DNA from: Giardia intestinalis
Taxonomy: Eukaryota
Strand: one strand, 5' to 3'
DNA length: 64,000 nucleotides
NCBI GenBank assembly: GCA_000002435.2
Contig: CM018791.1
Shown: positions 9,262 through 60,658 of the stretch, piece by piece
Position numbering within the stretch: the stretch's first letter is position 1
Layout of the letters: every line of letters starts with the position of its first letter
Position numbers and translations under genes: made by a program
The notes under the pieces: model-generated
What the model was told of the DNA's origin: nothing
Databases searched by the model: none
The model's input: the letters and a program-made list of their open reading frames with translations, nothing else

Positions 9262-12200
9262 CTATTCTTGTGTCAGCTTCACACACATTGCACGTAGCTT
9301 ACTAACTTCCAGCTCCCGTGCCGCAAGCAGCCTGTTACGCTTTTCAAGCTCAAGCTTTAATGTTTCTATCTTGTATTCATAAGACTTGGCTTTGTTCTCC
9401 AAGAATGCGAGCTTGTCCCTGATATCTTTATTTTCTTTTGTCAATAGCAAAAGCTTCTTATTGAGCGTCTCATTCTGGTTGTATGCTCGCCCAAGCTGAG
9501 CATCCTTGGTTGCTGCATCGATGTGGAGCTTCGAAACAGTCTCTTTCATCTCGTTGTTTTCGCTGACCAGCGACGCCGTTTTCCCTAGCGCATCTCCTTT
9601 AATGGCCATCAGATTATCGAGGTCTGTCTTCAGTCGTAGGTTTTCGTTAATCAAATTAACCACGTTATCACCCCTGTAATTGTCCTTCACCTCTTCTATG
9701 AATTTCATCATGCGATCGTTTTGGAATATCAGCTCCTGTATCCGCAACTGCTTATCTTCCACGTCCTGTGTCTGGTTCGTGTACTTGGCAGAAAGGTGAT
9801 CAAATTCCTGCTGAAGCTTTCGCAGAGCGTCTCCGTCAGTTCCCTTGTCCAGCCGGAGATTTTCGTTCTCCTTTCGAAGATAGTCTAGTTCGCCGCTAAG
9901 GACTTCAGATGACTTAATGAGCTTTGCGTTCTCTGCCTCCAGACTGTCCTGCCTAAGTTTGCTTGTCTCGTAGTTCAACTTCAGCTCGGCGATGGTGCTC
10001 TGCGTCTTCAAATAGGTATTATGAAGGTCGATCCTCTGGTTTTCTGTGTCCTCCAACATCTTTTTCTGATCAGTGTACAGAAGCTCATGATAGGATATCT
10101 TTTCCTTGGCAATGGCCACTTGATTTATTAGATGCTCCTTTTCCGTCGTTATAGCAGCGTTTTCCTTACGGACAGAGGAAAGCTCCTCCTTAAGCTCTGC
10201 AATTTGCTGCCTAAGTTCTGATTTGTCGCTCTCAAGTTGCTGCACCCGATCGTTGAGAGCAGCAACCGTTACAATCCTCTGCTGGTTGTCTAAAGAGTTG
10301 ACCGTGACGTCATGGAACATATCTGCTTTTTCTTTCATTTCCTGCCGTAAATTGCTCAGTTCCTGCTTGTACAGCTCCAGCTGCTGCTCCAGATTGTTAA
10401 TTCTGGCTTCTTTATAGTTAAAATCGGCGGATATCGCCTCGAACTCCTCTTTCATCCTGTTATACTCGACCTTAAACTCTTTGAGCTCGCCTTCTCGCGT
10501 CTTCAAGGTGCCTTTTAATGTTTTGCCGATTTCTTGCATTTTCTCCAACTTTGCAGCAGTTTCCTTTAACTCTGTCGTGACTCGCAGCTTGTCTTCTCGA
10601 AGCCTTCGGACCCGTTCTCTCAGACGAATCAGTGCACCAAGCTTGTCCTCTGTGGTCATCAAGCTAACCTCAAGACGGTAGATAAACTTTTCGCGCTCAA
10701 TAACCAGTGCTTGGTTGATAGAGGTAAGTTTCGAAACGCGCTTTTCAAGCTTCTCAACAGCATCTGACCTATCGCGCACCTGCAGCCCTCGTTCAGCCAG
10801 CTGCTCGTTGAGAGTGTTAATCATATCGCGCATTTTTTCTACTTGTCCTTCCCGTGTGTACGTGTCAAGCTGATCCTTAAATTCACGGGCTTTTTCGACA
10901 GACTTGTTTATGCGTTGCTCTTTCTGGGCCAATTCGTCGTGTAGTGTTCTTATTTTTTCTTCAAGAAGCAGCTTCTCCGCTTTGACTGAGCTAAGTTCTT
11001 TGTCTAGCTCCTTGATCTTGTCCTGCAAACCTATGCTTTGTGTTTCCAAGGCTGTCTTTTCAGCAACCACCTTTTGCAAGTCAAAGTCTAGCATGCCGTG
11101 CATACCAAGGATCTTCTCGGCCTCTTCGCTGACCACACGAAGCTTTTCTGTCAATGCTTGATTTTCCTGGTTGAGCGTTTCCGTTGTTTCCTCATACCCC
11201 TGGATGAGAGTTTGAGCTGTCTGCATTTCTTGCAGAGTGGCAGCTCTCTCTTCATATATGTCTCTATAGATTACCTCTTTTAGATGGTTGAATCCTGCGC
11301 GCCACGCATCTGTGGAGTAAAGCAGGTCGAAAGAAAGATTAACGAAGTAGCTATCCTGCTGAAAGATTTTATAGATTTTGCTCAGTTCTGGGTTGCCACG
11401 AAGGTCCTCGAGAACCGGGTTTTTGTGCCCAAGGACCTTAGCCTGAGATGAGGTCATACTGGGCATCTTCATTTCTTCAGGCTTGGCCAGAACTATCGGC
11501 ACAGATGAGTTTGGTGAGTGCTCAGCCAACGCAACAGGCAGCCCGGGGAACTGAAGGCTAAGAGGGTCATCCGTGACCGTTTGGTTGAGCTCCATCATGG
11601 CTGACCTTTGAGGTGAGCCCTGCCGGCTTTCTCGTCTACTGACACTGTTACTTATGGAGGGAACCAGGCTGAAACGCGGAGCCGTCTGCTTGACCTGCGT
11701 TTGATAGCGAAGAAGCTCTGCAAGTGCAAGAACGTGTTCCGGGGTACCTGTGTTTGCTTGAACTCCAAAATCGGCAACCTTACGGCCATCGCCTACTCTA
11801 TACTCTCCGTCTTCACAGCTGGAATAGCTACCAGTGCTGAGTAAATCCTCATCCAACGTATTATCACGCTTACGTATAATGCTTTCCACAGTACTATAGC
11901 CTCCTGCGGGAATAACGCCCTTAGAGCTAGTGAGTTTTTCTTTATATTTAGACTGACACTCTTCCGTGTTTCTTGTGAGCGCTCTTTGGGGGCGCGGACT
12001 AAATTCTTGATCTGTGTACTCACTGTACTCGTAAGTATCACTAGAATCGTACTGGGAAGTAGTGTCATAAGCCCTTCTACGAGACTGCTCTAGGTATTGC
12101 AGATTTTCCTGTGGAGGGGGGCATGAACGTGTGGAGACTGGACGCGAGAGGCTCTGCCTCTTAGTGCGTTTTCTACTGCGTTTTGCCGGAACAGAAGTAA

Positions 12201-12504
12201 AAGACCCTATTTGCAATTTGCTCACGTCCCGGGAGCTTGCGGTTTGTGATCTCTTACGAGACTCGGTGCGATGCGCTTCGTTTGTGGAAGATGGCCGTAT
12301 ATTCTTCACAGCATCCCCTCCTACAGAATGGCTTCTATGGACATCACCCTTACTCGCGTGCTGGCGGGCCTGGAGATTTGCACGCATCCGGGCGAGGACA
12401 TCTAGATTCATGGTATTCATCTCGGTAGTGAAGGCAGCTCTTCTCTGTCCAGCGAAAGAGGAAGGCGGAGCATTGCTGGGCTTGACGTGCCTATTAGCCT
12501 TCAT
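9262..12504 (-). CDS. large coiled-coil protein (1080 aa) with a disordered S/R-rich N-terminal region
   Basis: A confirmed minus-strand ATG at 12504. About 330 aa of low-complexity N-terminus are followed by about 750 aa of near-continuous heptad-rich sequence (LQEMQTAQTLIQGYEETTETLNQENQALTEKLRVVSEEAEK... through ...LELEKRNRLLAARELEVSKLRAMCVKL). Confidence 0.6.
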   Translation of the reverse strand: MKANRHVKPSNAPPSSFAGQRRAAFTTEMNTMNLDVLARMRANLQARQHASKGDVHRSHSVGGDAVKNIRPSSTNEAHRTESRKRSQTASSRDVSKLQIGSFTSVPAKRSRKRTKRQSLSRPVSTRSCPPPQENLQYLEQSRRRAYDTTSQYDSSDTYEYSEYTDQEFSPRPQRALTRNTEECQSKYKEKLTSSKGVIPAGGYSTVESIIRKRDNTLDEDLLSTGSYSSCEDGEYRVGDGRKVADFGVQANTGTPEHVLALAELLRYQTQVKQTAPRFSLVPSISNSVSRRESRQGSPQRSAMMELNQTVTDDPLSLQFPGLPVALAEHSPNSSVPIVLAKPEEMKMPSMTSSQAKVLGHKNPVLEDLRGNPELSKIYKIFQQDSYFVNLSFDLLYSTDAWRAGFNHLKEVIYRDIYEERAATLQEMQTAQTLIQGYEETTETLNQENQALTEKLRVVSEEAEKILGMHGMLDFDLQKVVAEKTALETQSIGLQDKIKELDKELSSVKAEKLLLEEKIRTLHDELAQKEQRINKSVEKAREFKDQLDTYTREGQVEKMRDMINTLNEQLAERGLQVRDRSDAVEKLEKRVSKLTSINQALVIEREKFIYRLEVSLMTTEDKLGALIRLRERVRRLREDKLRVTTELKETAAKLEKMQEIGKTLKGTLKTREGELKEFKVEYNRMKEEFEAISADFNYKEARINNLEQQLELYKQELSNLRQEMKEKADMFHDVTVNSLDNQQRIVTVAALNDRVQQLESDKSELRQQIAELKEELSSVRKENAAITTEKEHLINQVAIAKEKISYHELLYTDQKKMLEDTENQRIDLHNTYLKTQSTIAELKLNYETSKLRQDSLEAENAKLIKSSEVLSGELDYLRKENENLRLDKGTDGDALRKLQQEFDHLSAKYTNQTQDVEDKQLRIQELIFQNDRMMKFIEEVKDNYRGDNVVNLINENLRLKTDLDNLMAIKGDALGKTASLVSENNEMKETVSKLHIDAATKDAQLGRAYNQNETLNKKLLLLTKENKDIRDKLAFLENKAKSYEYKIETLKLELEKRNRLLAARELEVSKLRAMCVKLTQE

Positions 12505-12542
12505 GCCTAAGACTTAAAAAATCTGGATTTCTATCAAGCATA

Positions 12543-14564
12543 ATGTTTGCTATTATCGACAAACTCAACCAGCAGCAGCCGGAGACGATACTCTACTCGA
12601 AGCTTTACCTTGAGTCGCCGTACTCTTGCCTGTATGTTTACCAGAATTTATCCTCGTTGGCACAGGACTTTGTGCGAAACGTTCTTTGCTACACTATTTC
12701 GGCAGACGGCCCCATCACTGCGGCTGCGCGATATCCTGCATTTCCTTTTAACCCGCTCTCCATTGTTACCGAAGAAAGCCGCCCACGCCTAGCCATCGCT
12801 GTCAGACAGCTTGCAGATCTTCAAATTATCTCTGTGGAGAAAGATAAGACGCATTATGATCTTGTCTTCTTTCATAATCTCTTTTCTGCGCTGAATAATC
12901 TGCCTTTCGTGTCAATGGGTGGATACACTTCAGAATGCATAAAGCAGCATACTATAAACCCCTTTACCTCACGGAAAAGTACCAAGATGAATGCGAAACT
13001 AATGAAAGAATTTGTTAATTACTGCGAAGAGTATCCTGCATCGCGATTTAGAAAGCTCTTAGACTCTTTGATGGAGATATCGTCTCGGAAAGGCGACAAA
13101 AGAATAGATGAGAAGGAGGAGAAGAAGCTATTGCGGTTTAAAACGATATTCTCCCTTCTTTCCTTGATAGATCAACGGTCAAGCACAAAGGTAGAGTCCC
13201 AATCATCTCTCACGGAAAATGGGTGCCAATTCATGCTCGGAAGCGATCACGATCAGCTTTCTATTATTATCTACCAGCTCCTACTGTGCTTCGCTCATGC
13301 AGGCGTGTCAACCTCTTCCAGGTTTAAGGACTTTTATTTGGCGACAGAAAGATACACCAAGCAGAAGGATCAAGAGAGCAAGTGGATCTGTTCAGACTTT
13401 AACGACATTAACAAGCCAAGCTATGTAACGCACGTGGTGGGCTTGATCATGAATCTCTGCTGCCTCGATATGCTACATCTCCACGACATTGAGACGTCTC
13501 TATTTAGGTACTACTGTCCCTTCTTCTATTGGATGCACTCGTTTGGATTGATTCTCTTGAACCACATAAAGCCAGGGGCCTACTCTCTGGCCATTTCTCC
13601 CATTCTACTTAACCTTAACGAAAAGTACGTAAGTCACAAAGACCTTAGCGGGGCATTCTACAATGCACCAGCAGAGTACTATCGTAAAACAATTCTAGGC
13701 CAGTCCACAACTCGTAAGAACGACAGCCACGAAGACGGTGACGCAGACCAGATAGACTATTCTACAGAGGACCTTTCACTGCTGCAGAACTACACCATCA
13801 CTGAGTCCACCGGTCGCATATTTGTCTATAAAACTGCAGACGAAAACAGGAATGAGAAGAACAAGAACATAATGTGCCTCTTGTGCAACAAACCCAAGTA
13901 CACCTTCCCTCATGTCGACGTGTATGAACTCGATCCACAAAACGCCAAAGCAAACCTAGCATCTGCCACCGCATCGTTTCTACAGAAGACTGCGCGCTTG
14001 ATTATTGCGCGAGACAAGCTCCCACGTGGAGAACTTGTCGTCCCTCCGACACTTGTTAATCAACTAGAGTTCCTCCAGCAGAACGTGAATAATGCAGAGG
14101 TTCTCAAGGCATCTCCTCACGTTAAGGTGTATCAATTCCAGTACATGTCAAATGGAACCATTAAGAAGAAGTTCAGTGTGTCTGGTGAAGCAATCGCAGA
14201 GTTCTCGTATGCAATAGAGAAGTGCTCCTCTGTTGCTTACTATAAAGCAGTCACTATTGCAGAGGAGCTTGGCTGTCTGATTTGGAAGCATGATTTGGCA
14301 TTTTCAGCCATGCGTTCTCGATGCAACACACTTATGACAAGCAGCTACTATCGTTCCCCCACAGTTAAGTTTCTCTCGCTTCAAGGAGACGTCCAGCGCA
14401 CCATCCTGACTTTGTGGCACAAGATAGCGTCGTTTTATCCCACAGATGATAATGACAACATTCAGGGGCTTTGGCTCCTCATTCACGCTGGTTTCCAGGA
14501 GACGTTCGAACAGGAGTTCGATGCCGAAATGATGAAGATATCTAACGAGTGGGTGCCCACATAG
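12543..14564 (+). CDS. possible TFIIH subunit p52/Tfb2-like protein; otherwise hypothetical
   Basis: ATG at 12543, 38 bp from the divergent ATG at 12504. The N-terminal stretch LYLESPYSCLYVYQNLSSLAQDFVRNVL aligns with the conserved N-terminal region of human GTF2H4 as I recall it ([27 protein letters not shown]), with identities at C, L, V, L, S, L, A, V, L and conservative pairs. The remainder is not recognisable. Confidence 0.5.
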   Translation: MFAIIDKLNQQQPETILYSKLYLESPYSCLYVYQNLSSLAQDFVRNVLCYTISADGPITAAARYPAFPFNPLSIVTEESRPRLAIAVRQLADLQIISVEKDKTHYDLVFFHNLFSALNNLPFVSMGGYTSECIKQHTINPFTSRKSTKMNAKLMKEFVNYCEEYPASRFRKLLDSLMEISSRKGDKRIDEKEEKKLLRFKTIFSLLSLIDQRSSTKVESQSSLTENGCQFMLGSDHDQLSIIIYQLLLCFAHAGVSTSSRFKDFYLATERYTKQKDQESKWICSDFNDINKPSYVTHVVGLIMNLCCLDMLHLHDIETSLFRYYCPFFYWMHSFGLILLNHIKPGAYSLAISPILLNLNEKYVSHKDLSGAFYNAPAEYYRKTILGQSTTRKNDSHEDGDADQIDYSTEDLSLLQNYTITESTGRIFVYKTADENRNEKNKNIMCLLCNKPKYTFPHVDVYELDPQNAKANLASATASFLQKTARLIIARDKLPRGELVVPPTLVNQLEFLQQNVNNAEVLKASPHVKVYQFQYMSNGTIKKKFSVSGEAIAEFSYAIEKCSSVAYYKAVTIAEELGCLIWKHDLAFSAMRSRCNTLMTSSYYRSPTVKFLSLQGDVQRTILTLWHKIASFYPTDDNDNIQGLWLLIHAGFQETFEQEFDAEMMKISNEWVPT

Positions 14565-29009: not shown

Positions 29010-29055
29010 TAGATCGGATAAACAAAAGTGTATTATTAGTTAGAGATGTCCAGGA

Positions 29056-29069
29056 GCGCAGATTTAGGC
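29056..29069 (+). promoter_or_regulatory. histone promoter motif GCGCAGATTTAGGC
   Basis: 41 to 54 bp upstream of the H2A ATG. The same 14-mer, with one R position, lies at the equivalent distance upstream of both H4 genes in this window. Confidence 0.6.
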
Positions 29070-29109
29070 ATAATTTCAGTTTAAATTGTCTGCGCAGATA
29101 AAGAAAGCC

Positions 29110-29484
29110 ATGAGCACCAAGCCCGTCAAGGACAACAGCAAGATGAAGAGCAGGTCCGCGCGCGCGGGGATCTCGTTCCCGATCGGGCGCATCCACCGTC
29201 ACCTGCGCGAGGGTCGCTACGCAGAGCGCATCTCGTCCGACGCGCCCGTCTACCTCGCGGCCGTCCTCGAGAACGTCGTCGCAGAGGTCTTCCGGGAGGC
29301 GTGCAACCACCGCGACAAGAAGAGCCAGAAGCGCATCGTCCCCAACCACATCCTGACTGCCCTCCGCAAGGACAAGGAGCTCGCGACCATCTTCGCCAAC
29401 GTCACAATCCGCGAGGGAGGCGTCGCCCGCTCCGCGAAGGAGGGAAGAGAGGGCAAGGGCTCCCATCGGTCGCAGGATCTTTGA
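29110..29484 (+). CDS. H2A: histone H2A
   Basis: Histone-fold sequence SRSARAGISFPIGRIHRHLREGRYAERISSDAPVYLAAVLENVVAEVFREACN...KRIVPNHILTALRKDKELATIFANVTIREGGV. The track ORF starts at a TTG at 29086 and the ATG is at 29110. Confidence 0.9.
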   Translation: MSTKPVKDNSKMKSRSARAGISFPIGRIHRHLREGRYAERISSDAPVYLAAVLENVVAEVFREACNHRDKKSQKRIVPNHILTALRKDKELATIFANVTIREGGVARSAKEGREGKGSHRSQDL

Positions 29485-51368: not shown

Positions 51369-53327
51369 ATGCAATTTGCTGCCTTGCCACGTCGCTACAA
51401 ATATGAGACTATCTTGGGTGATGTGAAGGCATCCAGGACCAGCAAATGCAGCGATACGTCTAGTAGCAGAGTGGTGGCAGTCAGATTTGTTCAGGAAGAA
51501 TTTTACATTTCGGAGGATTCGAAGGCAAAAACGTCAGCTGACTACCCGGAAGGTGACCGAGTGAAGATTGATCGGAGCAAAGGCGTGTATATAGAGCAGA
51601 TCTCTTTTCTCCTTGGGCTTAAGAACCAGTATTTGCTTTCATACGACAAGCTGACTTCCGGGATTGCAACGGGGCGTTTTTATCTCCCCATGACATTTGT
51701 TCGCGGAGGATCCCTTAGAGATTGGATGGTCGAGCGTAAAGAATCCAAAACCCCTCTGACCCCGGTAGAGCTGTGGAGACTACTGTCTCCGGTAATTTCT
51801 GCTCTTGCCTACCTTCACGGTAGTTACAAAACAGAGAAGTATACCACTGCTGCTGGCACCCAAAAACCAATCCGCCAACTTTATCACGGCGGCGTACACC
51901 CTGGAAACATTTTGCTTACGGAAGGAGGCTCTACGCTTCTTACTGATCCATGCATCTGCCGCACGGCAACCATGAGCACTTTTATTCTGGATTTGGAAAA
52001 TGCTCAGAAGCAACGGGACAAGTTCAAGTCCATTCAAGGGTACCTGTCATACCTCGCTCCAGAGGTGTTGCAGACCTACAAGCATCTTCCTGCCTCCGAT
52101 ATATGGTCTCTGGGCATTATCGCCCTAGAGATGTTCTCATCTAGAAAGCCTAAAGTACCCCCATATGGGCCAGATGCAGTAGACTACTTTTCCACTTGGA
52201 CCCCGCCGGATACCTCGTCTTTTCCCAGTGAGGTAGCGTATTTTTTAGAATCTACTTTGGCTATTAGACCGGAAGACAGGATTACAGCCGGAGATTTACT
52301 TCAACTGCCGTTTATTCAAAGGATAATGCAAGAGAAGATAGCCGGACGAAGTGTAACTGTAACCATAGCAGCCTGTGGCGATGGTGTCAATGGAGGCCTG
52401 TCTGGTGAGCAAAAGCAGCCAGTGACTACTTCACTTCCGGCATTGACTGCAGAAGACTTCAAAAGAATGTTTCCAGGGGAAAAGGTGCCCAGCTGCATCC
52501 TTAAAAGGGAAAGAGATCTACAAGCTCAAATACAGAATGGTGACAGTAATCTTCTCGATTCAACTACGTCCGGAGCTAAGAAAAAATCTAGTTCCAAAGC
52601 ACGTGGATTGAAAATCCCGGGAAATTATAAAGATACACATGACGGCCTTATCAATGCAATAAAGGACAACAATCTGAATGCCGTCAAAGCTCTTGTAAGG
52701 CACGCTAAGAGCTATGATAAAAATGGACTAACTGCAATGGCCCATGCTGCCATCCTAGGTCGCTCAGAAGTTGTCGAACTTCTTCTTCCCCATGAGGGAG
52801 GAATGCGGCTGAAGTGTGACAGAGATGTGGCAAACCTTCTCTATTCATCGCCGACATCAATGATGCTTGCCGCATCCGAAGGCAATGACGCAGTGATTAG
52901 GGTGCTACAAGACTGCGAGGCTCGTGCATCAACTGCGAATCATTGTAGAACAGCCCTTATGGCTGCTGCTGCGTGCGGTTATCCGTCGATTGTCTCCCTG
53001 TTGGTCAAGGACGAGGCACGGATGACGACAGATAATGGTACAACTGCTCTGATGCTTAGTGCAAGGGGAGGGCGGCTAGAATGTGTGAGTATTTTGGTAC
53101 AACAGGAGCACGGATTGGTTGACAGGTGGGGCAACTCCGCTCTAGTTTTAGCCGCAGTTAATGGTCATATGTCTTGTGTAGATGTCTTGGCTGAATACGA
53201 AGGTGAAGAATATGCGCGGCGTGCCATAAGTCTTGCCCCAGAAGCTAACAGGGAGGAGCTCACTGCTAAGCTTCTAACGTACATTAGTGCACCTCCTCCC
53301 GCAAAGAACTCTCTAGTTATAGTTTAG
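51369..53327 (+). CDS. NEK-like protein kinase-fold protein with degenerate catalytic motifs (predicted pseudokinase) and C-terminal ankyrin repeats
   Basis: Kinase-fold elements are present (YLAPEVLQ, DIWSLGIIALEMFS). HRDLKPEN is replaced by HGGVHPGN, DFG by DPC, and VAIK by VVAVRF. The C-terminus has four or more ankyrin repeats (GLTAMAHAAILGRSEVVELLL, RTALMAAAACGYPSIVSLLV, GTTALMLSARGGRLECVSILV, GNSALVLAAVNGHMSCVDVLA). ATG at 51369 follows aaaaaacaaaa. Confidence 0.75.
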   Translation: MQFAALPRRYKYETILGDVKASRTSKCSDTSSSRVVAVRFVQEEFYISEDSKAKTSADYPEGDRVKIDRSKGVYIEQISFLLGLKNQYLLSYDKLTSGIATGRFYLPMTFVRGGSLRDWMVERKESKTPLTPVELWRLLSPVISALAYLHGSYKTEKYTTAAGTQKPIRQLYHGGVHPGNILLTEGGSTLLTDPCICRTATMSTFILDLENAQKQRDKFKSIQGYLSYLAPEVLQTYKHLPASDIWSLGIIALEMFSSRKPKVPPYGPDAVDYFSTWTPPDTSSFPSEVAYFLESTLAIRPEDRITAGDLLQLPFIQRIMQEKIAGRSVTVTIAACGDGVNGGLSGEQKQPVTTSLPALTAEDFKRMFPGEKVPSCILKRERDLQAQIQNGDSNLLDSTTSGAKKKSSSKARGLKIPGNYKDTHDGLINAIKDNNLNAVKALVRHAKSYDKNGLTAMAHAAILGRSEVVELLLPHEGGMRLKCDRDVANLLYSSPTSMMLAASEGNDAVIRVLQDCEARASTANHCRTALMAAAACGYPSIVSLLVKDEARMTTDNGTTALMLSARGGRLECVSILVQQEHGLVDRWGNSALVLAAVNGHMSCVDVLAEYEGEEYARRAISLAPEANREELTAKLLTYISAPPPAKNSLVIV

Positions 53328-53350
53328 CTGTAGATTATCTACTGAATTGT

Positions 53351-54496
53351 ATGTCAGCTAAAGAATTTATGATTACATGGTCTATAGACTCTATCTATGT
53401 GGTGCTACTCCTAAGAACACTGATACCGTATACATGTTTGTTTCTGAGTAGCCTAATCCCCCCGCACATACCAGTCTACGATAAGCGGATGGGTGTTATT
53501 CGCGTCTTTCTATCGTGGGATGTCGAATGGTTTCTAAGGATAGCGGGCGGCGGCTATAGCACGGAAGCTCGTCTTGCATTCTTCCCTGCCTTGCCCTTCT
53601 TGCTTCGTGAGATTGGCATCAAGGGTGTCCTCGCATTGAACGGAGTGCTACGGATCATAAATGCAGTACTCCAGATTAAGTTATGCTGGCACCTGAATCG
53701 ATTGGCTGGAGAAGCTTTCACACCGCAAACTATAAGGAAGCTCCACTTCCTCCTCATTTTTTCACCAATAGCTGTGTTTGAAACAGTTCCATACACAGAA
53801 ACCCTGTTTGGATGTCTGAGCGTAATGTTTCTTTTAGTGTACAGCTCCATGACTCTTTACAATAAAAAGGTACAGGTACTTGGTTATGTTGCGCTTGTAC
53901 TGATAGGCATGCTGATGGGACTGGTTAGAAATACAGCCGTATTTCATGCAGGATACTTTATGTTTGGTGTAATTTTCTTGTCCAGGCCCATAGGAGAGCT
54001 TATCCTTAGTGGGTATTATTTTCTATCCGTTCTTCTTCCGCTGAAAAGAAGATTGGAGCAGTATTATGAAATGTGTATACCCTTGAAGAATGTCTCTAAA
54101 ATCTACTCGAATATTCAGAATAAGTACTGGGGTGTTGGTCTCTTTAACTACTGGAAAATCACAAATCTTCCACGGTTTTTGCTTGTCCTTCCATCAACAT
54201 TTCTGTGTCTGAGTTATATGTTTACAGAAAGCAAGAAATGGATACATAGCGTCTGCCGAGAACGCAATGTATTCCCGAGGCTTACATCCTTTAAGTTTGC
54301 GGTTGCTACTCATGCTTTCGTATTGACAAGTATAGTAGTTTTTTTGGCCAATGTGGAAATCCTACCGCGAATTCTGCTTTCTTCGTGCCCTAGCATCCTA
54401 GCTCATGTTCCCTTTAACCGTAGCACTATCTATATGGTTGTTCTCGTTTCCACGCTCGGGGCGGGGCTCTTCGGGGCGTTCCTTCCCTGGACGTAG
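53351..54496 (+). CDS. PIGV: GPI mannosyltransferase 2 (PIG-V/Gpi18 family), multi-pass membrane protein
   Basis: LSWDVEWFLRIAGGGYSTEARLAFFPALPFL matches the PIG-V signature region (human ...[30 protein letters not shown]...). The extreme C-terminus GAFLPWT matches the human PIG-V C-terminus (...NFLPWT). There are multiple hydrophobic helices. The start could be 53351 or the ATG at 53369. Confidence 0.75.
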   Translation: MSAKEFMITWSIDSIYVVLLLRTLIPYTCLFLSSLIPPHIPVYDKRMGVIRVFLSWDVEWFLRIAGGGYSTEARLAFFPALPFLLREIGIKGVLALNGVLRIINAVLQIKLCWHLNRLAGEAFTPQTIRKLHFLLIFSPIAVFETVPYTETLFGCLSVMFLLVYSSMTLYNKKVQVLGYVALVLIGMLMGLVRNTAVFHAGYFMFGVIFLSRPIGELILSGYYFLSVLLPLKRRLEQYYEMCIPLKNVSKIYSNIQNKYWGVGLFNYWKITNLPRFLLVLPSTFLCLSYMFTESKKWIHSVCRERNVFPRLTSFKFAVATHAFVLTSIVVFLANVEILPRILLSSCPSILAHVPFNRSTIYMVVLVSTLGAGLFGAFLPWT

Positions 54497-54497
54497 G

Positions 54498-54511
54498 GCG
54501 CAGATTTGGGC
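54498..54511 (+). promoter_or_regulatory. histone promoter motif GCGCAGATTTGGGC (H4 copy 1)
   Basis: 34 to 47 bp upstream of the H4 ATG at 54545. It directly follows the PIG-V-like stop codon. Confidence 0.6.
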
Positions 54512-54544
54512 TAAAAAAGAAGACGCGGGAAGGGGCAAATAAAA

Positions 54545-54844
54545 ATGTCTGGCAAGGGTAAGGGTAAGGGCTACGGCAAGTCGAAGCGCCACTCGAAGGA
54601 GAAGGACACGCTCGGGGGCATCACGAAGCCCGCCATCCGCCGTCTGGCGCGCCGTGGAGGTGTGAAGCGCATCTCCTCGACGATCTACCAGCAGACCCGC
54701 GAGGTCCTCAAGGCGTTCCTCGAGGTCGTTCTCCGCGACTCCCTCACATACACAGAACACGGCCAGCGCAAGACGGTCACGTCCCAGGACGTCGTCTACG
54801 CTCTCAAGCGCCAGGGCCGCACACTCTATGGATTCGGGATCTAA
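54545..54844 (+). CDS. H4: histone H4 (copy 1)
   Basis: [20 protein letters not shown]...[30 protein letters not shown] gives unambiguous H4 core sequence, divergent in the N-terminal tail. ATG is at 54545 after caaataaaa. Confidence 0.92.
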
Positions 54845-57487
54845 TTATAGTAAACAGTCTGTCTCCCCGTAGCTTCTGTAGTCGCACCCGCTGGGGTCAA
54901 GGACGTCTCCTTCGAGTGGGCAGAGGATCCTGATGGCGGGTGTGTGTCCCCGGCTCGCCGCATACATCAAAGCGCAGCGCCCTGCTGCATCAATTGCTCC
55001 GTGCTCCAGAGGGGCAAGCACATGCACAGATGCCATCTGGCCACAGAGGACGGCCTCGATCAGCGCTGTCCGGCCACGGTTGTTCCGGAGCCCTGCTTCA
55101 ACGGTGACGAGCTGGCAGACCGCAGCCGTGGCGCCCACGACCGCGGCGCACATGAGGGCTGTCCACCCCTCTACCGTTTGAGCGCGGGCCTCGTAAAGAA
55201 GGAGCGCCTCAACACCCTCCACGTAGTTTGAGGCGGCGGCCACCATCAGGGCCGTCTCGCCGCGCTTGTTCTGCAGCCGCGCTTCAGTCCTGAGAAGACT
55301 GAGAGCATCTGTAGCCCAGAACCGCGCCGCATAGATCAGGGCAGTGTCTCCATCGAAGTCCTGCCTGCCGTGCTGGAAGGGGAGAAGCCTATCGATGCAG
55401 CCAACGCGGTTGTTTGCCGCCGCAGCCATTAGAGCAGTGCGCCCCCGACTGTCTGCGATGTCCGCCTCTGCCCCCACGAGGAGGTTGAGGAGCTGATGCA
55501 TACCGCGTTGCGCCGCCAGGAAAAGAGCTGTGCAGCCTTGGGCGTCGCGGCCTCCGGCGTCTGTTCGCATCCGCTGGAGAACCATGGCCTCGTCGCACGA
55601 GAAGATTGCGTGCTGTAGAGGGCTGCGGCGGAGAGTGTTGTGGACCAGCTCAGACCGCAGCTTCTGACGGATACACGGATGTGTCGCAAGCATCGATAGA
55701 GCGGTGCGCGCCACAGGGTCCGGCTGGAGCATGCCAGCCAAGACTCCGTGCAGCTCGTCCGAGTACGACAGACCAAGAAAGTGGCCTCGGAGATGTGCCT
55801 GGGCGTCATCCAGTGTCGAGCAAGCAATGATATCTCCGCGGCAGAGGTGGCAAATTGTTTGTGCCAGCTCCCAAAGGTCTGCCCGGGAGCCTCCAACCCA
55901 TGACTGGGCGCTGCCAGGACGAAGTTCAGGTGCAGTGAAGGGATCCAGACCCTTGTCCAAAGCCAAGTGTCCGCAGCGAGATGGCTGCGTAAGCTTCTTG
56001 GCGAAGCGCAGAGCAGACCCTGTGTCAAGAAGGCGCAGATCCCCTTCCTGGGTCAAATAAAGCGCCCACGGGCGGATAGCATGGTGACAGAGGGGGCCGT
56101 CAGAGCGCGTCTGGAGCATGCAGAGCACATCGACAACGGCAATAAGTAGGCTCCAGACCTTCTGCTCACAGAGACCTCCCCTGTCCAGAGTTCCTACGAC
56201 GTCGCTGAGACGGTGAAGGGAAGCGGCCTCCACGGCCTCATAGGCGTAGGTGTTTAAGGAGCTGATCTTTCCAAAGGACAAGGGCACAATATATGGATGC
56301 GATATTGAAGCTAATTCTGCAAAATATTCAGTTATAGCATTCTGCAACACAGAGTCATCTCCGATACGATATACTTTGCAGAAAACACGGATACCTGTGC
56401 TACGATTTTTGAGAACAAAACCTTCACACATTCCGTTGAATCCACAGTGCGCTATGGGTAGGTAGTCTGGGAGATCCAAGAGTATGCTTTCTAGAGAGTT
56501 TTCAATTAGAGAAGATAATCCATCAGAACGGCCTGTCAGAGGCTTCTGCAACCAGGAAGGTAAAACAAGAGGCTGCGGTACATCGAGAGGAGGCTCTAAA
56601 AGAGATCCAATGGGTATAGAACGAAGAAGGGTGCGACTAGCAAAGGGAACTTTGGATAGAAGGTCACAAACTTTGGGATGCAAGAGAAGTTTGGTAGGAG
56701 TTGGCCTATCGGAGGGTCTGTATGCTAGGAGCTGTGCCACTAACGGCCGCAAAGTTAGGGGAACCTTCTCCACCAAAGTCGATGCACGCTTTGGTAAGGC
56801 GCTAGGACCAAGAGTTGAAAGAATGGCCGGAAGCACCTGTGATCTATCGTCTCCAAATGGATAGCTGCCATTACAGATTCTGTATAACAGACATCCGAGA
56901 GACCACATAACCGACTGTGTACTTCCTGGCCCCCCATGAAGAACTTCAGGACTTGAGCAGGGCCCGACAACAAGCGAGGATACACAGATGTTATCCCTAG
57001 GAGGTTCCAGGGCTACTCGAGGGTGTAAGAGAACCCGAAAAAGGTCAATCTCTTTATCGTATGAAAAATGCGCAGGGTCCAGCTCCTCGACCGGCAGGGT
57101 GTCGAAGAGAGCTGCAGGACAGAGAAACTCCTTATCAAGCTCACTATAGAGAGCAGCAACAGAAGCTATAAGTCTCCAACAAAGCCTCACACGCATGGAA
57201 ATGGACTGGTCTTTGGTGTCAGCAATTGGAGAATAGGGGAGTAGAAGCCGAAGCTGTATGACCTCTGGAACAGACTCTTCATTAATTGCATAATTCATTA
57301 CAAGCGGATGGATGGGCTTAGAGATGTATAATGTGAGCCGCTGTCTCCATGCGTCAATAGATCCTTGTGGTAAGCTCTGGAAGTGAATATTATGGATATC
57401 TTGCCCACAGAGGTCTGTATTCTTGCTAACAGTAAAGGTGACGCGCTGCATAGTATAAAGGTTGGGACAGTGAGAGTCTTCTGGCAT
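54845..57487 (-). CDS. kinase-like protein with degenerate catalytic motifs and C-terminal ankyrin repeats (NEK-like pseudokinase), possibly two tandem kinase-like regions
   Basis: The track start is a TTG at 57559. The first ATG is 57487 (MPEDSH...), with A-rich sequence just upstream. Residues around 370 to 630 have kinase-fold elements with degenerate catalytic motifs: GIRVFCKVYRI; HHAIRPWALYL in place of HRDLKPEN; LLDTGSA in place of DFG; FTAPELRP; ADLWELAQ. Residues around 150 to 300 carry a second C-lobe-like stretch (SPEVLHGG...SVMWSLGCLLYRICNGSYPF). The C-terminal 300 aa are ankyrin repeats, and the 3' 963 bp lie inside the inverted repeat. Confidence 0.75.
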   Translation of the reverse strand: MPEDSHCPNLYTMQRVTFTVSKNTDLCGQDIHNIHFQSLPQGSIDAWRQRLTLYISKPIHPLVMNYAINEESVPEVIQLRLLLPYSPIADTKDQSISMRVRLCWRLIASVAALYSELDKEFLCPAALFDTLPVEELDPAHFSYDKEIDLFRVLLHPRVALEPPRDNICVSSLVVGPCSSPEVLHGGPGSTQSVMWSLGCLLYRICNGSYPFGDDRSQVLPAILSTLGPSALPKRASTLVEKVPLTLRPLVAQLLAYRPSDRPTPTKLLLHPKVCDLLSKVPFASRTLLRSIPIGSLLEPPLDVPQPLVLPSWLQKPLTGRSDGLSSLIENSLESILLDLPDYLPIAHCGFNGMCEGFVLKNRSTGIRVFCKVYRIGDDSVLQNAITEYFAELASISHPYIVPLSFGKISSLNTYAYEAVEAASLHRLSDVVGTLDRGGLCEQKVWSLLIAVVDVLCMLQTRSDGPLCHHAIRPWALYLTQEGDLRLLDTGSALRFAKKLTQPSRCGHLALDKGLDPFTAPELRPGSAQSWVGGSRADLWELAQTICHLCRGDIIACSTLDDAQAHLRGHFLGLSYSDELHGVLAGMLQPDPVARTALSMLATHPCIRQKLRSELVHNTLRRSPLQHAIFSCDEAMVLQRMRTDAGGRDAQGCTALFLAAQRGMHQLLNLLVGAEADIADSRGRTALMAAAANNRVGCIDRLLPFQHGRQDFDGDTALIYAARFWATDALSLLRTEARLQNKRGETALMVAAASNYVEGVEALLLYEARAQTVEGWTALMCAAVVGATAAVCQLVTVEAGLRNNRGRTALIEAVLCGQMASVHVLAPLEHGAIDAAGRCALMYAASRGHTPAIRILCPLEGDVLDPSGCDYRSYGETDCLL
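54849..54855 (+). promoter_or_regulatory. putative poly(A) signal AGTAAAC for H4 copy 1
   Basis: In TAAttatAGTAAACag the heptamer starts 5 nt after the H4 stop. It lies within the last codons of the convergent kinase gene on the opposite strand. Confidence 0.5.
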
Positions 57488-57789
57488 AAGGGGATTTTTG
57501 GCTCTTTCTACGCCATATGAGCATAATGTGTCCCTCACCAAGACACTAGTTAATTGCAACCGAGAGTCACCTTGTAAGATTCAGCAGCCCCTGGGGCAGT
57601 CAGGCTTTTCAAGAAAACGTTCCCTTGGGCTTTGATGGACCATGGCTAAGTCAGAGCAAAAGCGTAAGATAATAGCGTGTTTATCTCTCCAGCGGAAAGA
57701 CGCGTTGCACCATTGACGCCCAGGCACATCTCCGAGGCCACTTTCTTGGTCTGTCGTACTCGGACGAGCTGCACGGAGTCTTGGCTGGC

Positions 57790-58677
57790 ATGCTCCAGCC
57801 GGACCCTGTGGCGCGCACCGCTCTATCGATGCTTGCGACACATCCGTGTATCCGTCAGAAGCTGCGGTCTGAGCTGGTCCACAACACTCTCCGCCGCAGC
57901 CCTCTACAGCACGCAATCTTCTCGTGCGACGAGGCCATGGTTCTCCAGCGGATGCGAACAGACGCCGGAGGCCGCGACGCCCAAGGCTGCACAGCTCTTT
58001 TCCTGGCGGCGCAACGCGGTATGCATCAGCTCCTCAACCTCCTCGTGGGGGCAGAGGCGGACATCGCAGACAGTCGGGGGCGCACTGCTCTAATGGCTGC
58101 GGCGGCAAACAACCGCGTTGGCTGCATCGATAGGCTTCTCCCCTTCCAGCACGGCAGGCAGGACTTCGATGGAGACACTGCCCTGATCTATGCGGCGCGG
58201 TTCTGGGCTACAGATGCTCTCAGTCTTCTCAGGACTGAAGCGCGGCTGCAGAACAAGCGCGGCGAGACGGCCCTGATGGTGGCCGCCGCCTCAAACTACG
58301 TGGAGGGTGTTGAGGCGCTCCTTCTTTACGAGGCCCGCGCTCAAACGGTAGAGGGGTGGACAGCCCTCATGTGCGCCGCGGTCGTGGGCGCCACGGCTGC
58401 GGTCTGCCAGCTCGTCACCGTTGAAGCAGGGCTCCGGAACAACCGTGGCCGGACAGCGCTGATCGAGGCCGTCCTCTGTGGCCAGATGGCATCTGTGCAT
58501 GTGCTTGCCCCTCTGGAGCACGGAGCAATTGATGCAGCAGGGCGCTGCGCTTTGATGTATGCGGCGAGCCGGGGACACACACCCGCCATCAGGATCCTCT
58601 GCCCACTCGAAGGAGACGTCCTTGACCCCAGCGGGTGCGACTACAGAAGCTACGGGGAGACAGACTGTTTACTATAA
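57790..58677 (+). pseudogene. duplicated 3' fragment of the kinase/ankyrin gene, forming a free-standing 296-aa ankyrin-repeat ORF (possibly expressed; status unknown)
   Basis: The translation is identical to the C-terminal 296 aa of the 54845..57487 protein (MLQPDPVARTALSMLATHPCIRQKL...GETDCLL). The kinase-like N-terminal two-thirds are absent. The repeat boundary lies 76 bp upstream of this ATG, and the track ORF begins at a TTG at 57781. Confidence 0.55.
58667..58673 (-). promoter_or_regulatory. putative poly(A) signal AGTAAAC for H4 copy 2
   Basis: Mirror image of 54849..54855 within the repeat. Confidence 0.5.
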
Positions 58678-58977
58678 TTAGATCCCGAATCCATAGAGTG
58701 TGCGGCCCTGGCGCTTGAGAGCGTAGACGACGTCCTGGGACGTGACCGTCTTGCGCTGGCCGTGTTCTGTGTATGTGAGGGAGTCGCGGAGAACGACCTC
58801 GAGGAACGCCTTGAGGACCTCGCGGGTCTGCTGGTAGATCGTCGAGGAGATGCGCTTCACACCTCCACGGCGCGCCAGACGGCGGATGGCGGGCTTCGTG
58901 ATGCCCCCGAGCGTGTCCTTCTCCTTCGAGTGGCGCTTCGACTTGCCGTAGCCCTTACCCTTACCCTTGCCAGACAT
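58678..58977 (-). CDS. H4: histone H4 (copy 2, identical protein to copy 1)
   Basis: 99-aa translation identical to 54545..54844. It lies in the right repeat arm in inverted orientation. Confidence 0.92.
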
Positions 58978-59010
58978 TTTTATTTGCCCCTTCCCGCGTC
59001 TTCTTTTTTA

Positions 59011-59024
59011 GCCCAAATCTGCGC
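59011..59024 (-). promoter_or_regulatory. histone promoter motif (GCGCAGATTTGGGC on the minus strand) for H4 copy 2
   Basis: Mirror image of 54498..54511 within the repeat arm. Confidence 0.6.
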
Positions 59025-59150
59025 CCTACGTCCAGGGAAGGAACGCCCCGAAGAGCCCCGCCCCGAGCGTGGAAACAAAGACACCACTGAGTAAAACCTT
59101 GCTTTGTCAGTTTTGACTCTCAATAGCAAGAATTTGCAGGCTAAAATTAA

Positions 59151-59423
59151 ATGACCATAACGGCTCCGATTCAGCTTCTTTTTGAGGCAATTGATATGTG
59201 TGTGTCCGTAGAAACCAGGACAGGTAGCATATATGAAGGAAAGCTTGTGTCTGTAGAACCAACGCTTTCGGTTACTATTTCGAACTGCACAATAACACAC
59301 CCTACGGGTCAAAAGGAAACAGCACAAACGGTTATGCTGAGAGGATCTGAAGTTCGGTTTGTGTCTGTTCCTAATGCCCTCGTAGACTCTCCGGTATTGA
59401 AGCAGGGAAATCGCAAAATTTAA
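59151..59423 (+). CDS. SNRPD3: Sm protein, best match SmD3
   Basis: Sm1/Sm2 fold. PIQLLFEAIDMCVSVETRTGSIYEGKLVSVEPTLSVTISNCTITH...VMLRGSEVRFVSVPNALVDSPVLK parallels human SmD3 ([48 protein letters not shown]...[22 protein letters not shown]). ATG at 59151 follows gctaaaattaa. Confidence 0.8.
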   Translation: MTITAPIQLLFEAIDMCVSVETRTGSIYEGKLVSVEPTLSVTISNCTITHPTGQKETAQTVMLRGSEVRFVSVPNALVDSPVLKQGNRKI

Positions 59424-59437
59424 AAAACGCTTCAGGT

Positions 59438-60658
59438 ATGAACAAGCTGATTGCCGTCGAGGCATGTCGGTGCTTGGCGGTAATACAGGACACTATAGAC
59501 GTGCTTGAGCGGGTAATGTGTGTCAATCCAACTCTCTTTACTTTAGGCTTAGACTTTGATGGTTTGCTGGGCAAGGAGTTGTCGACTGCTATGCGGAAAT
59601 ATCAACAAACTCGCACTACACTGGAATCATTGCGCACAGAGTTGGCTTCTGTGAAGGCAGCAGGCTTCAAAGCACGACTTAAGTCTATTCAGCGGAAGAT
59701 AGAAGGCGCCACGGATATGTTTCAGAAGGCTGTGAAGCAGCTAATAGTTTTGTTAGCGGGTGAGCTGGATTTCATTCCCAAGTTGGAGCAGGCGGGGGTT
59801 CAGCCTGTGTTGCTGCAGCCTCAGGCGGCTGTGCTTGGAGGAGCTGCAGGACGCTCCACTGCTACTGCCTCTGTAGCAGGGGACCACGCTCAAGTCCTCT
59901 CTCAGAGTCAAACGGGCACACTTGTCCCCAATCAAGCAGCCCAAAACTATGCCAGTATCAATGATCTAATTGCTATTCTCAAGTCCCTGCATCACGTTGT
60001 CTCCATTGACATGATGACGAGTGCTGACCAAGAGAAGCAGAAGAAGACCATGCTTGCGGCTTTGGCGGCCTCTGAGCGCACAAATTTGGCACATCTTCAA
60101 TCTCTCCGCCGGGAGCTGGATATCACGATGGGGCAATGTCAGTCGGCTGAAGAGAGGGTTGCTCTGCACTTGGCTACCATAAACGAGTTACTAACTACTA
60201 ACGCTGTCAATGCAGACAACGAAACAACCAGGTTGATAGAGGAGTCTTCGGGATTGGAGACACAGAGCCAGGAGTCGTACTCAAAACGAATTGGTGATAT
60301 AATGCCAAAGATACTTGAGCTCCAGCGGAAAGTTGCAGACTTATGTAAGAAGCATAGAGATAATGTAGTAGACATTCAGCGAAACAAGCGCCGCTCTGAG
60401 TTTCAGATTCGCAACTGGTTAAAGAACTATGATGAACGGTGTATCGACTGTGACAACCTCATCTATAAACTCCGGTACGAGATCAACATAAGCGAAGATC
60501 GAATTGGAGTCCTCCAGGGTGTCATCAATGCATACAACGCATACCTAACTAAGCGCACAAGCCAGTACGAAGAGAAGGAGGAGGTACTACGGCAGTTCAT
60601 GCTCAGCTGGGAACTTCCTCCAGTTGTCTACGAAACACAACATAAGGAATTCGGATAG
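59438..60658 (+). CDS. hypothetical coiled-coil protein
   Basis: 406-aa ORF with ATG at 59438, 14 bp after the SmD3 stop. Heptad-rich segments run throughout (LESLRTELASVKAAGFKARLKSIQRKIEGATDMFQKAVKQL; RIGDIMPKILELQRKVADLCKKHRDN). Confidence 0.55.
   Translation: MNKLIAVEACRCLAVIQDTIDVLERVMCVNPTLFTLGLDFDGLLGKELSTAMRKYQQTRTTLESLRTELASVKAAGFKARLKSIQRKIEGATDMFQKAVKQLIVLLAGELDFIPKLEQAGVQPVLLQPQAAVLGGAAGRSTATASVAGDHAQVLSQSQTGTLVPNQAAQNYASINDLIAILKSLHHVVSIDMMTSADQEKQKKTMLAALAASERTNLAHLQSLRRELDITMGQCQSAEERVALHLATINELLTTNAVNADNETTRLIEESSGLETQSQESYSKRIGDIMPKILELQRKVADLCKKHRDNVVDIQRNKRRSEFQIRNWLKNYDERCIDCDNLIYKLRYEINISEDRIGVLQGVINAYNAYLTKRTSQYEEKEEVLRQFMLSWELPPVVYETQHKEFG

Follow-up and report, generated by a model that had tools for sequence, protein, structure and literature searches.

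Why are the two arms of a perfect inverted duplication in the genome of Giardia intestinalis identical? Three answers were offered by a first-pass annotation of the window, which is the whole analysed stretch of 64 kb: a very recent duplication, ongoing gene conversion between the arms, or an assembly artefact. The geometry given there was reproduced in full. The reverse complement of 57714-59076 matches positions 54446-55808 exactly, at every one of 1363 bp (0 mismatches, no indels); paired arm coordinates add up to 113522, and a spacer of 1905 bp separates the arms. The whole palindrome, two H4 copies included, measures 4.63 kb from end to end. Identity ends sharply at the arm limits, where the first outward base and 20 of the 20 first inward bases are unpaired. 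The left flank ends with GTTCTC at the arm limit and the right flank starts with AAAGAC. The spacer reads TCCAGTGTCGAG from 55809 onward and ATGGTGCAACGC as reverse complement from 57713 downward. A repeat search recovered the same arm pair as 1370 nt, a few chance matches padding the ends. No other direct or inverted repeat of at least 60 bp was found across the 64-kb window, and chance is therefore excluded for the arm pair.

The locus corresponds to the H4 gene pair of Giardia intestinalis (Table 1), and the genome is most likely WB-like and of assemblage A1, with the locus on chromosome 5. Each arm holds, as originally annotated, a complete H4 gene with promoter motif and poly(A) signal, together with the 3' end of a kinase gene, which encodes ankyrin repeats; the kinase part is present at a length of 964 bp (54845-55808, stop included), not 963 bp. 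The two H4 coding sequences of 300 bp are identical and convergent, tail to tail, and they are the only H4 copies in the window. The H4 protein is the same in the DH, GS, P15 and Giardia muris assemblies. Both arms contain the published histone promoter motif (him) GGGCGCAGATTTGG, and the left motif shares the last base of the PIG-V stop codon. The him motif and a 50-bp minimal promoter were defined previously (PMC1872034). Exactly 99 bp lie between the arm start and the H4 ATG. Elsewhere in the window, at 29054-29484, an H2A gene carries a him-like motif; its location fits the published chromosome 5 position of 0.6 Mb.

Table 1. Features of the H4 palindrome and its neighbourhood in window coordinates.
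Feature	Position	Strand	Size	Remarks
PIG-V-like mannosyltransferase gene	53351..54496	+		PF04188; last 51 bp (16 codons and stop) inside left arm
Left arm	54446..55808			Contains PIG-V 3' end, promoter and coding sequence of H4, and kinase 3' end; mirrored exactly by 57714-59076
him histone promoter motif, left H4	54496..54509	+		GRGCGCAGATTNGG; exact match
Histone H4, left copy	54545..54844	+	99 aa	Histone-fold family matches
Kinase-like and ankyrin-repeat gene	54845..57487	-	880 aa	Giardia NEK / Protein 21.1 type; last 964 bp in left arm
AGTAAAC poly(A) signal, left H4	54849..54855	+		Begins 5 bp past stop; agrees with Table 1 of PMC1872034
Unique spacer	55809..57713		1905 bp	5' 1679 bp of kinase CDS and 226 bp upstream
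Right arm	57714..59076		1363 bp	LSM-side junction confirmed in Logan contig L008 and in DH, GS and P15 assemblies
Duplicate of kinase 3' end	57714..58677	+		Ankyrin repeats; open 298-aa ORF 57781-58677
AGTAAAC poly(A) signal, right H4	58667..58673	-		Mirror copy
Histone H4, right copy	58678..58977	-	99 aa	Positional orthologue of G. muris H4 by synteny
him histone promoter motif, right H4	59013..59026	-		Exact match
PIG-V C-terminal relic, non-genic	59026..59076	-		VSTLGAGLFGAFLPWT and stop; outer end of right arm
LSM/Sm-D3-like gene	59151..59423	+		Unique right flank, 74 bp from arm

Part of this arrangement is known. Yee et al. (2007; BMC Mol Biol 8:26, PMC1872034) described tail-to-tail H4 copies on chromosome 5, three within 8 kb, which are identical and share exactly 99 bp of sequence upstream and 124 bp downstream; an 8-kb PCR product spans the locus. 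The window agrees in the identical coding sequences, the tail-to-tail orientation, the him motif and the AGTAAAC 5 bp past the stop, and the published 99 bp correspond exactly to 54446-54544. It differs in copy number, with two copies within 4.63 kb instead of three within an 8-kb fragment, and in the downstream identity, which reaches 964 bp, into the kinase gene, instead of 124 bp. In the 2007 assembly, the third H4 copy was placed at the end of a contig and is possibly redundant; the 'third H4 copy' of the older literature merits re-examination. The palindrome as such, the passenger fragments of neighbouring genes, the concerted evolution across assemblages and the spacer orientation are absent from Yee et al. 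(2007). A literature search found no report of an H4 inverted repeat or inversion in Giardia, and the supplements of Pollo et al. (2020) on intra-isolate structural variants, based on nanopore reads, have no entry under the H4 gene IDs.

Comparison with other isolates and assemblies, the check suggested by the first-pass annotation, revealed the inverted duplication in DH, GS and P15. These three assemblies contain both flank-arm junctions, and Logan short-read contigs assembled from other runs (L007, L008, L028) match the junctions with 100% identity. Those contigs end at the final arm base, as expected for a true repeat branch point. Four Logan contigs span the spacer-arm junction, also at 100% identity. 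Independent data sets show the duplication in assemblages A1, A2, B and E, and it occurs in two further lineages as well. In A1, A2, B and E, a distance of 84-102 bp separates the outer boundary from the H4 ATG downstream of it; in the two further lineages, LSM-side contigs also break at this boundary and carry the relic of the PIG-V tail. The inner boundary is more variable: past the H4 stop, the arm continues for 45 bp in E, for 964 bp in A and apparently for at least 3.4 kb in B. Judged by this distribution, the H4 inverted duplication is old and predates the assemblage split.

Within a genome, the arms evolve together. A 429-bp core has 0, 0, 2 and 0 differences between left and right copy in the WB-like, DH, P15 and GS assemblies, respectively, values that may be inflated towards identity by assemblers and polishers that pool reads of near-identical repeats. 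Between assemblages, the same core has 15-25 base differences, including 10-11 synonymous changes in H4. For the full arm, 13 of 13 substitutions between the window and DH are found on both arms of each genome. Assemblages A and B differ in 227-231 of the 1363 arm bases (about 17%; about 23% over the wider locus). Read pooling could hide a few differences between arms, but not the 4-6% divergence expected without conversion. Of the three explanations offered initially, the contrast of 0-2 differences within and 15-25 between genomes thus supports the second: the data favour ongoing gene conversion as the process that keeps the arms identical. When the kinase of WB-like, P15 and GS was compared by GC3 along its length, no clear signature of GC-biased conversion emerged and no pattern followed repeat membership. 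GC3 rises towards the kinase 3' end to a similar extent in WB-like and GS, and P15 has a high GC content all along, with its kinase outside the repeat.

The arms also contain pieces of neighbouring genes. The PIG-V-like gene ends within the left arm, as annotated, and its protein ends with FLPWT. The terminal PWT is retained without change in 13 of 13 distant homologues, which identifies the copy beside the LSM gene as a relic. This relic is also present on the LSM side in assemblage B (L023) and the two further lineages (L016, L020). The kinase stop codon abuts the stop codon of the left H4. Kinase orthologues share 81% identity in P15 and 69% in assemblage B, and upstream of this gene, P15 remains homologous to the window exactly as far as 57713. 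In the window orientation, the kinase fragment of the right arm lacks the kinase 5' part. The LSM-side copy of P15 has just 13 codons of the kinase tail, followed by a different ankyrin gene. Exact-protein look-ups of the 880-aa kinase and the 298-aa fragment ORF found no record, and an Rfam scan of 53000-60000 gave no match. One contig (P0004 / L027) was discarded as chimeric, since it joins the 5' part of an assemblage-B kinase to foreign, GC-rich sequence.

The left arm had been proposed as the ancestral context. This holds for the flanking gene pieces: the invariant PWT (13/13) and the 13-codon kinase relic of P15 indicate the left context as their source. It is not supported for the histone gene, as the right H4 is the copy syntenic with G. 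muris. The shared gene order comprises PheRS, a 402/406-aa gene, H4, a 644/663-aa gene and dynein. The G. muris PIG-V gene is located about 109 kb from H4 and has no adjoining H4. The argument that the left arm is ancestral because it completes the kinase depends on orientation: the right arm completes the kinase in DH. Since the gene pieces come from the left context, yet the right H4 holds the G. muris-syntenic position, the arms appear to be a mosaic from transfers in both directions.

The best explanation, which we consider likely, is an old H4 palindrome whose arms are homogenised by gene conversion, which dragged in passengers and whose crossovers invert the spacer. Repeated homologous recombination from arm to arm would keep the two H4 arms identical. 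Conversion or repair tracts leaving the H4 homology may drag neighbouring pieces of the left context into the right copy: the 51 bp that encode the PIG-V C-terminus and, for assemblage A, also the 964 bp of the kinase ankyrin end. These pieces would be passengers in the right copy and not functional units. Crossover resolution of the same recombination would invert the 1905-bp spacer, a flip that should normally be silent, either arm providing the kinase with an identical 3' third. We infer the recombination mechanism, its direction and its timing from sequence comparison. The likely outcome is two identical, independently promoted H4 genes, consistent with the two-copy dosage of other Giardia core histone genes.

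Zero mismatches along 1363 bp would also be expected from a lineage-specific duplication too young to diverge. This is very unlikely: the same duplication, with nearly the same outer boundary and the PIG-V relic, occurs not only in DH, GS and P15 but also in further lineages, with differences from the window of up to about 23%, and each of the 13 substitutions that arose after the A1/A2 split is found on both arms. The occurrence in A1, A2, B, E and two further lineages refutes the 'very recent duplication' of the first reading. Its third option, an assembly artefact, has some background, as perfect palindromes are a known artefact of long-read assembly and an older assembly gave three H4 copies, not two. 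A false inverted duplication or a chimeric join is nevertheless highly improbable. The join between each unique flank and the arm recurs in independent read sets and in assemblies of different technologies, contigs stop exactly at the inner boundary like at a true branch point, and a published PCR product crosses the locus. The same junctions in independent data sets and assemblies refute the artefact.

Purifying selection alone, without conversion, might hold the copies identical, given an H4 protein that is extremely conserved and identical even in G. muris. It can hardly account for an identity that covers synonymous H4 sites, the non-genic PIG-V relic and the kinase fragment, nor for lineage-specific substitutions common to both arms, and we give it almost no weight. 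Long inverted arms around a short unique core resemble a foldback-type mobile element with terminal inverted repeats of 1.36 kb. The arms, however, consist of host gene pieces, no transposase domain was found, the spacer contains the kinase 5' part only and the two flank sequences show no target-site duplication. The structure is single-copy in the window and has a syntenic position in all assemblages. The transposon reading was rejected on these grounds; its probability is practically negligible.

The possibility of a spacer inversion was predicted in the first-pass annotation and is supported by a single comparison, the window against the DH contig. In the DH assembly (assemblage A2), both flanks are collinear with the window and the arm-spacer-arm unit is reversed. 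The inner junctions, read base by base, are swapped; the spacer has the same length and 22 mismatches. DH is a single contig at this locus. All four local junctions are alike in both isomers, so that a read or mate pair must span 1363 bp to reveal the orientation of the spacer. The 298-aa fragment ORF is uninformative on orientation because it lies entirely within the arm. A PIG-V look-up for more arm-spanning contigs of assemblage A yielded none, only Logan short-read contigs, which stop at the inner boundary or at scattered points within H4. On the preferred reading, the orientation difference between window and DH would be biological. Inversion is coding-neutral because either identical arm completes the kinase. 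In DH, the kinase-joined arm has a 17-bp tandem duplication GCCGCGCTTGTTCTGCA that frameshifts the kinase, and the other arm is intact.

The duplication may be real and gene-converted and the spacer may still never invert, if the spacer of DH or of the window was misoriented during assembly. This is a real possibility, although we lean against it. It agrees with the identical local junctions, by which short reads cannot orient the spacer, with short-read contigs that break at arm ends and with the lack of a second independent arm-spanning contig of assemblage A. On the other side, the recombination that homogenises the arms should also yield crossovers, and DH is a single contig with both flanks collinear. 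The preferred reading, an old, gene-converting palindrome with an invertible spacer, could be extended to a palindrome that flips appreciably often in clonal Giardia cultures, with isomers coexisting among the four chromosome copies of the two nuclei. This extension is rather doubtful. If true, frequent flipping would be a natural, PCR-readable reporter of mitotic homologous recombination. With arms that are transiently different, a situation of which the 17-bp duplication of DH is an example, flip or conversion would toggle the kinase between intact and truncated, an inversion-based on/off switch.

Recombination and sex in Giardia are still debated. The locus would be clean, sequence-level evidence of active and sustained intrachromosomal homologous recombination in this organism: the assemblages diverge, yet base identity is retained by two H4 copies and 1 kb of passenger sequence. 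It bears on recombination and gene conversion in Giardia and on the very low heterozygosity seen in assemblage A, all of them open topics. Its 4.6 kb and flippable spacer make the palindrome easy to assay. For annotation, the kinase fragment in the arm not joined to the kinase should not be treated as an independent gene. Short-read assemblies always break at the palindrome or orient the spacer arbitrarily.

The structure belongs to a known kind, the gene-converting palindrome. The palindromes of primate sex chromosomes (P1-P8 of the Y chromosome, and others on the X) have inverted, nearly 100% identical arms, a unique spacer and gene conversion; they were reportedly described as gene-converting by Rozen and co-workers in 2003 and in later work. 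As in these, the Giardia structure is older than the taxa sharing it, arm-to-arm divergence is far below the divergence between taxa, the spacer may be invertible by crossover (here from one assembly comparison) and the arms hold dosage-relevant genes. Unlike the primate palindromes of 9 kb to 1.5 Mb on a non-recombining sex chromosome, the arms have 1.4 kb and are located on an autosome-like chromosome of a tetraploid, binucleate protist, and no signal of GC-biased conversion was detected. The plastid inverted repeat has copy correction, flip-flop isomers and shifting boundaries. It shares with the H4 locus the homogenisation of copies by recombination and, probably, an intervening unique region in two orientations (here between assemblies). 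In both systems, the boundary shifts by lineage and captures or releases neighbouring fragments, comparable to the truncated ycf1 and rps19 pseudogenes. The H4 locus differs in being nuclear and much smaller, with the orientations seen in separate assemblies. A dedicated site-specific recombinase, as in the FLP/FRT system of the 2-micron plasmid, was not found in or beside the element; spacer, arms and neighbours encode H4, kinase/ankyrin, PIG-V and LSM proteins. The sister species G. muris also has two near-identical H4 copies. They are located in an 8.1-kb segment that is 99.8% identical and includes a truncated neighbour, the dynein 3' end. Unlike the local palindrome of the window, the G. 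muris duplication is interchromosomal and dispersed.

The two arms of the palindrome are exact reverse complements of 1363 bp each, with 0 mismatches and 0 indels, and are separated by 1905 bp, just as the first-pass annotation had described. Arm pairing ends abruptly on both sides of the palindrome. The region was compared with the full window by BLAST, and repeats were scanned for across all of it. The inverted pair is the sole repeat of at least 60 bp within 64 kb; the identity of the arms is therefore not a chance match. The annotated layout of the arms also held, apart from the kinase part, which measures 964 bp instead of 963 bp. Within the arm, H4 and the kinase 3′ end adjoin with zero intergenic gap. 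The kinase genes of the window are ankyrin-kinase genes of the 'Protein 21.1'/NEK type. GC content is about 0.55-0.65 over 54250-56250 versus 0.38-0.50 in the flanks, and the high-GC block extends about 450 bp beyond the arm into the spacer. High GC thus tracks H4 and the 3′ half of the kinase gene, not the repeat. No match to Rfam families was found across 53000-60000.

Features of the H4 palindrome and its surroundings (window coordinates)
Feature	Position	Strand	Content
Histone H2A gene region	29054-29484; CDS ~29113-29484	+	
Second kinase-plus-ankyrin gene	51369-53327		652 aa, directly upstream of PIG-V
PIG-V-like mannosyltransferase gene	53351-54496		C-terminal coding end lies in left arm
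Left arm (PIG-V side)	54446-55808		
Arm, outer part			99 bp upstream of H4; outer 51 bp = final 16 PIG-V codons and stop
Arm, inner 48 bp of the upstream 99 bp			H4 promoter with published histone motif GGGCGCAGATTTGG
Arm, H4 CDS	54545-54844 (left); 58678-58977 (right)	+ (left); - (right)	300 bp
Arm, AGTAAAC			Begins 5 bp past H4 stop
Arm, kinase part			964 bp, ankyrin-encoding 3′ end of the kinase-like gene
Kinase-like gene	54845-57487	- (opposite to left H4)	880 aa
Spacer	55809-57713		1679 bp, rest of kinase gene; 226 bp upstream of kinase gene
Right arm (LSM side)	57714-59076		
PIG-V relic	59026-59076		Right-arm copy of the outer 51 bp
LSM gene	59151-59423	+	

An assembly artefact had been one of the options raised for the perfect identity. 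Independent contigs were retrieved by exact-protein look-up for H4. The window's gene content points to Giardia: besides the ankyrin-kinase genes, its H4 protein is identical to the H4 of Giardia assemblies, and its DNA is 99% identical to isolate DH. Logan short-read contigs of other runs match the window at 100% identity. Two enter the arm from the PIG-V flank (L007, L028) and one from the LSM side (L008); they cross the entire arm and end exactly at its last base, as expected for a true branch point. The passage from spacer into arm is unbroken in four further contigs at 100% identity. Both flank-H4 junctions were also found in the assemblies of DH (AHGT01000031), GS (AHHH01000033, ACGJ01001465) and P15 (ACVC01000114, ACVC01000422, ACVC01000235). 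The recurrence of the junctions in other runs and in these three assemblies rules out an artefact. PIG-V-flank contigs of related Logan runs (SRR106628xx, L029-L037) end scattered 88-418 bp into the arm, within H4 and not at the repeat boundary; possible causes are variants, or effects of coverage or GC. One contig (L027 2208-4411, Logan SRR17450158) joins an assemblage B kinase 5′ part to very GC-rich, non-Giardia-looking sequence and is probably a chimera from a mixed sample. A mobile element was also considered and ruled out, as target-site duplication and transposase are both lacking and the palindrome is a single-copy, syntenic structure.

A very recent duplication, the second option, does not agree with the distribution of the structure. 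The H4 duplication is common to assemblages A1, A2, B and E, and its outer boundary is similar in all of them, 84-102 bp ahead of the H4 ATG. In two more lineages (runs ERR33333xx and SRR17450158), the LSM-side contigs end at this point too. The H4 palindrome is real and ancient. Copies were compared within and between genomes on a 429-bp core present in all. Left and right copies differ at 0 bases in the window, DH and GS and at 2 in P15; read pooling by the assembler could mask a few such differences, but not the 4-6% divergence expected without conversion. Between genomes, the core differs by 15-25 bases, among them 10-11 synonymous H4 changes. Over the 1363 bp, 13 sites separate the window arms from those of DH, all 13 of which occur on both arms of each genome, and arms of A and B diverge at 227-231 sites. 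Apart from the outermost base and a single 17-bp indel, the two DH arms are the same. Identity within and divergence between genomes mean that the copies group by genome, not by position. This grouping shows concerted evolution, with arm-to-arm conversion that, judged from the sequence comparisons, appears recurrent and continuing. Ongoing gene conversion was the remaining option of the first-pass annotation, and the one that these counts bear out. Kinase GC3 in the window, GS and P15 carried no signature of GC-biased conversion; its 3′ rise is as strong in GS as in the window, and P15 is GC-rich along the whole length.

An inversion of the spacer between the arms had also been predicted, and the DH assembly matches such an isomer. 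Both DH flanks are collinear with the window, and 54446-59075 aligns to DH in reverse. Base-by-base reading shows the PIG-V-side arm of DH followed by the window's right spacer end in reverse complement, and the left spacer end, also in reverse complement, just before the LSM-side arm. Both inner junctions are thus swapped. The DH spacer has the same length, 1905 bp, with 22 mismatches. All local junctions are common to both isomers; the spacer can be oriented only by reads or mate pairs spanning 1363 bp. No second arm-spanning contig of assemblage A was found. The spacer is probably invertible. Given the identity of the arms, either isomer has a complete kinase and a flip would be coding-neutral. 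The DH arm joined to the kinase has a perfect 17-bp tandem duplication, GCCGCGCTTGTTCTGCA, at about 13700-13760 of AHGT01000031 (L002), equivalent to window 55258; the other DH arm is intact. The duplication is flanked by pre-existing 9-bp repeats and frameshifts the DH kinase, which is annotated as 776 aa and 133 aa. It looks like a slippage event and could represent either a genuine slippage allele or an error in sequencing.

The inner boundary, measured from the H4 stop, is 45 bp away in E, 964 bp away in A and apparently far more distant in B. The GS contigs of the PIG-V side (L004) and the LSM side (L006) have 4199 bp in common (9917-14114; 5 mismatches, 1 gap), a stretch that takes in the kinase in full and about 1.2 kb upstream of it. 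An assemblage B contig of 3759 bp is bounded by the outer edge. Assemblage B could have either much longer arms with two kinase genes, or short arms and a much larger spacer with both orientations in different assemblies. PIG-V-side contigs of B (L001, L004, 14500-20300) run on into VSP genes, not a second arm. In P15 (assemblage E), a flavohaemoprotein-like gene region (L011 1-8297), absent from the window, lies upstream of the kinase. Homology between P15 and the window stops exactly at 57713, which marks the spacer/right-arm junction as an A-lineage-specific rearrangement breakpoint.

A C-terminal PWT is shared by 13 of 13 PIG-V homologues, at identities as low as 22%. The outer 51 bp of the left arm are thus genuine PIG-V coding sequence and their LSM-side copy is a relic. 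The same relic is present on the LSM side in assemblage B and two other lineages. The right copy of P15 retains just 45 bp of the kinase tail (13 codons, RDYRSYGEADCLL*), followed by a different ankyrin gene (L009 10346-10870), while its left copy is contiguous with the full kinase and contigs L010 and L011 abut. Both relics indicate copying from left to right, with the kinase 3′ end and the PIG-V tail as passengers. For the H4 gene itself, synteny points the other way. In the sister species G. muris, H4 is flanked on one side by the orthologue of a 406-aa gene (68% identity) and PheRS, and on the other by the orthologue of a 633/663-aa gene (36% identity, E = 4e-132) and dynein, which is the position of the right copy in the window. 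PIG-V lies about 109 kb from H4 in G. muris, and no H4 adjoins it. The view of the left arm as ancestral thus holds for the flanking PIG-V and kinase pieces, but not for H4. In the simplest reading, H4 was originally at the right site, a copy would then have arisen beside PIG-V and the kinase, and later left-to-right tracts would have overwritten the right copy and its edges. The syntenic G. muris interval lacks the block formed by the 652-aa gene, PIG-V, left H4 and the 880-aa kinase. A segmental duplication of 8.1 kb between two chromosomes, with 99.8% identity, was seen in G. muris (L003 5932-14052 and L005 5932-14052; CM016925, CM016926). It carries PheRS, a 402-aa gene, H4, a 644-aa gene and a truncated dynein heavy-chain 3′ end. 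The sister species therefore also keeps two near-identical H4 copies, but in a different, interchromosomal arrangement.

Sex-chromosome palindromes and the plastid inverted repeat are well-known structures of this type, and the duplication of H4 has already been published. In the searchable literature, the full palindrome extent, the neighbour-gene relics, the cross-assemblage concerted evolution and the orientation difference between assemblies appear to be undescribed. The H4 genes of isolate WB were reported as identical copies in tail-to-tail arrangement at around 0.6 Mb of chromosome 5; their upstream sequence is identical over 99 bp, and they have the histone promoter motif him and AGTAAAC 5 bp past the stop (Yee et al. 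2007, PMC1872034). Three copies were counted in an 8-kb fragment, the third at a contig end, versus two within 4.63 kb in the window. The fragment was backed by a matching PCR product (data not shown), and the identical 3′ sequence was given as only 124 bp (PMC1872034). The third copy may be assembly redundancy. The H2A gene of the window is preceded by a him-like motif, GAGCGCAGATTTAG, with 1 mismatch to the consensus. It fits the published H2a-ii, placed at the same position at about 0.6 Mb of chromosome 5 (PMC1872034), and links the window to that region.
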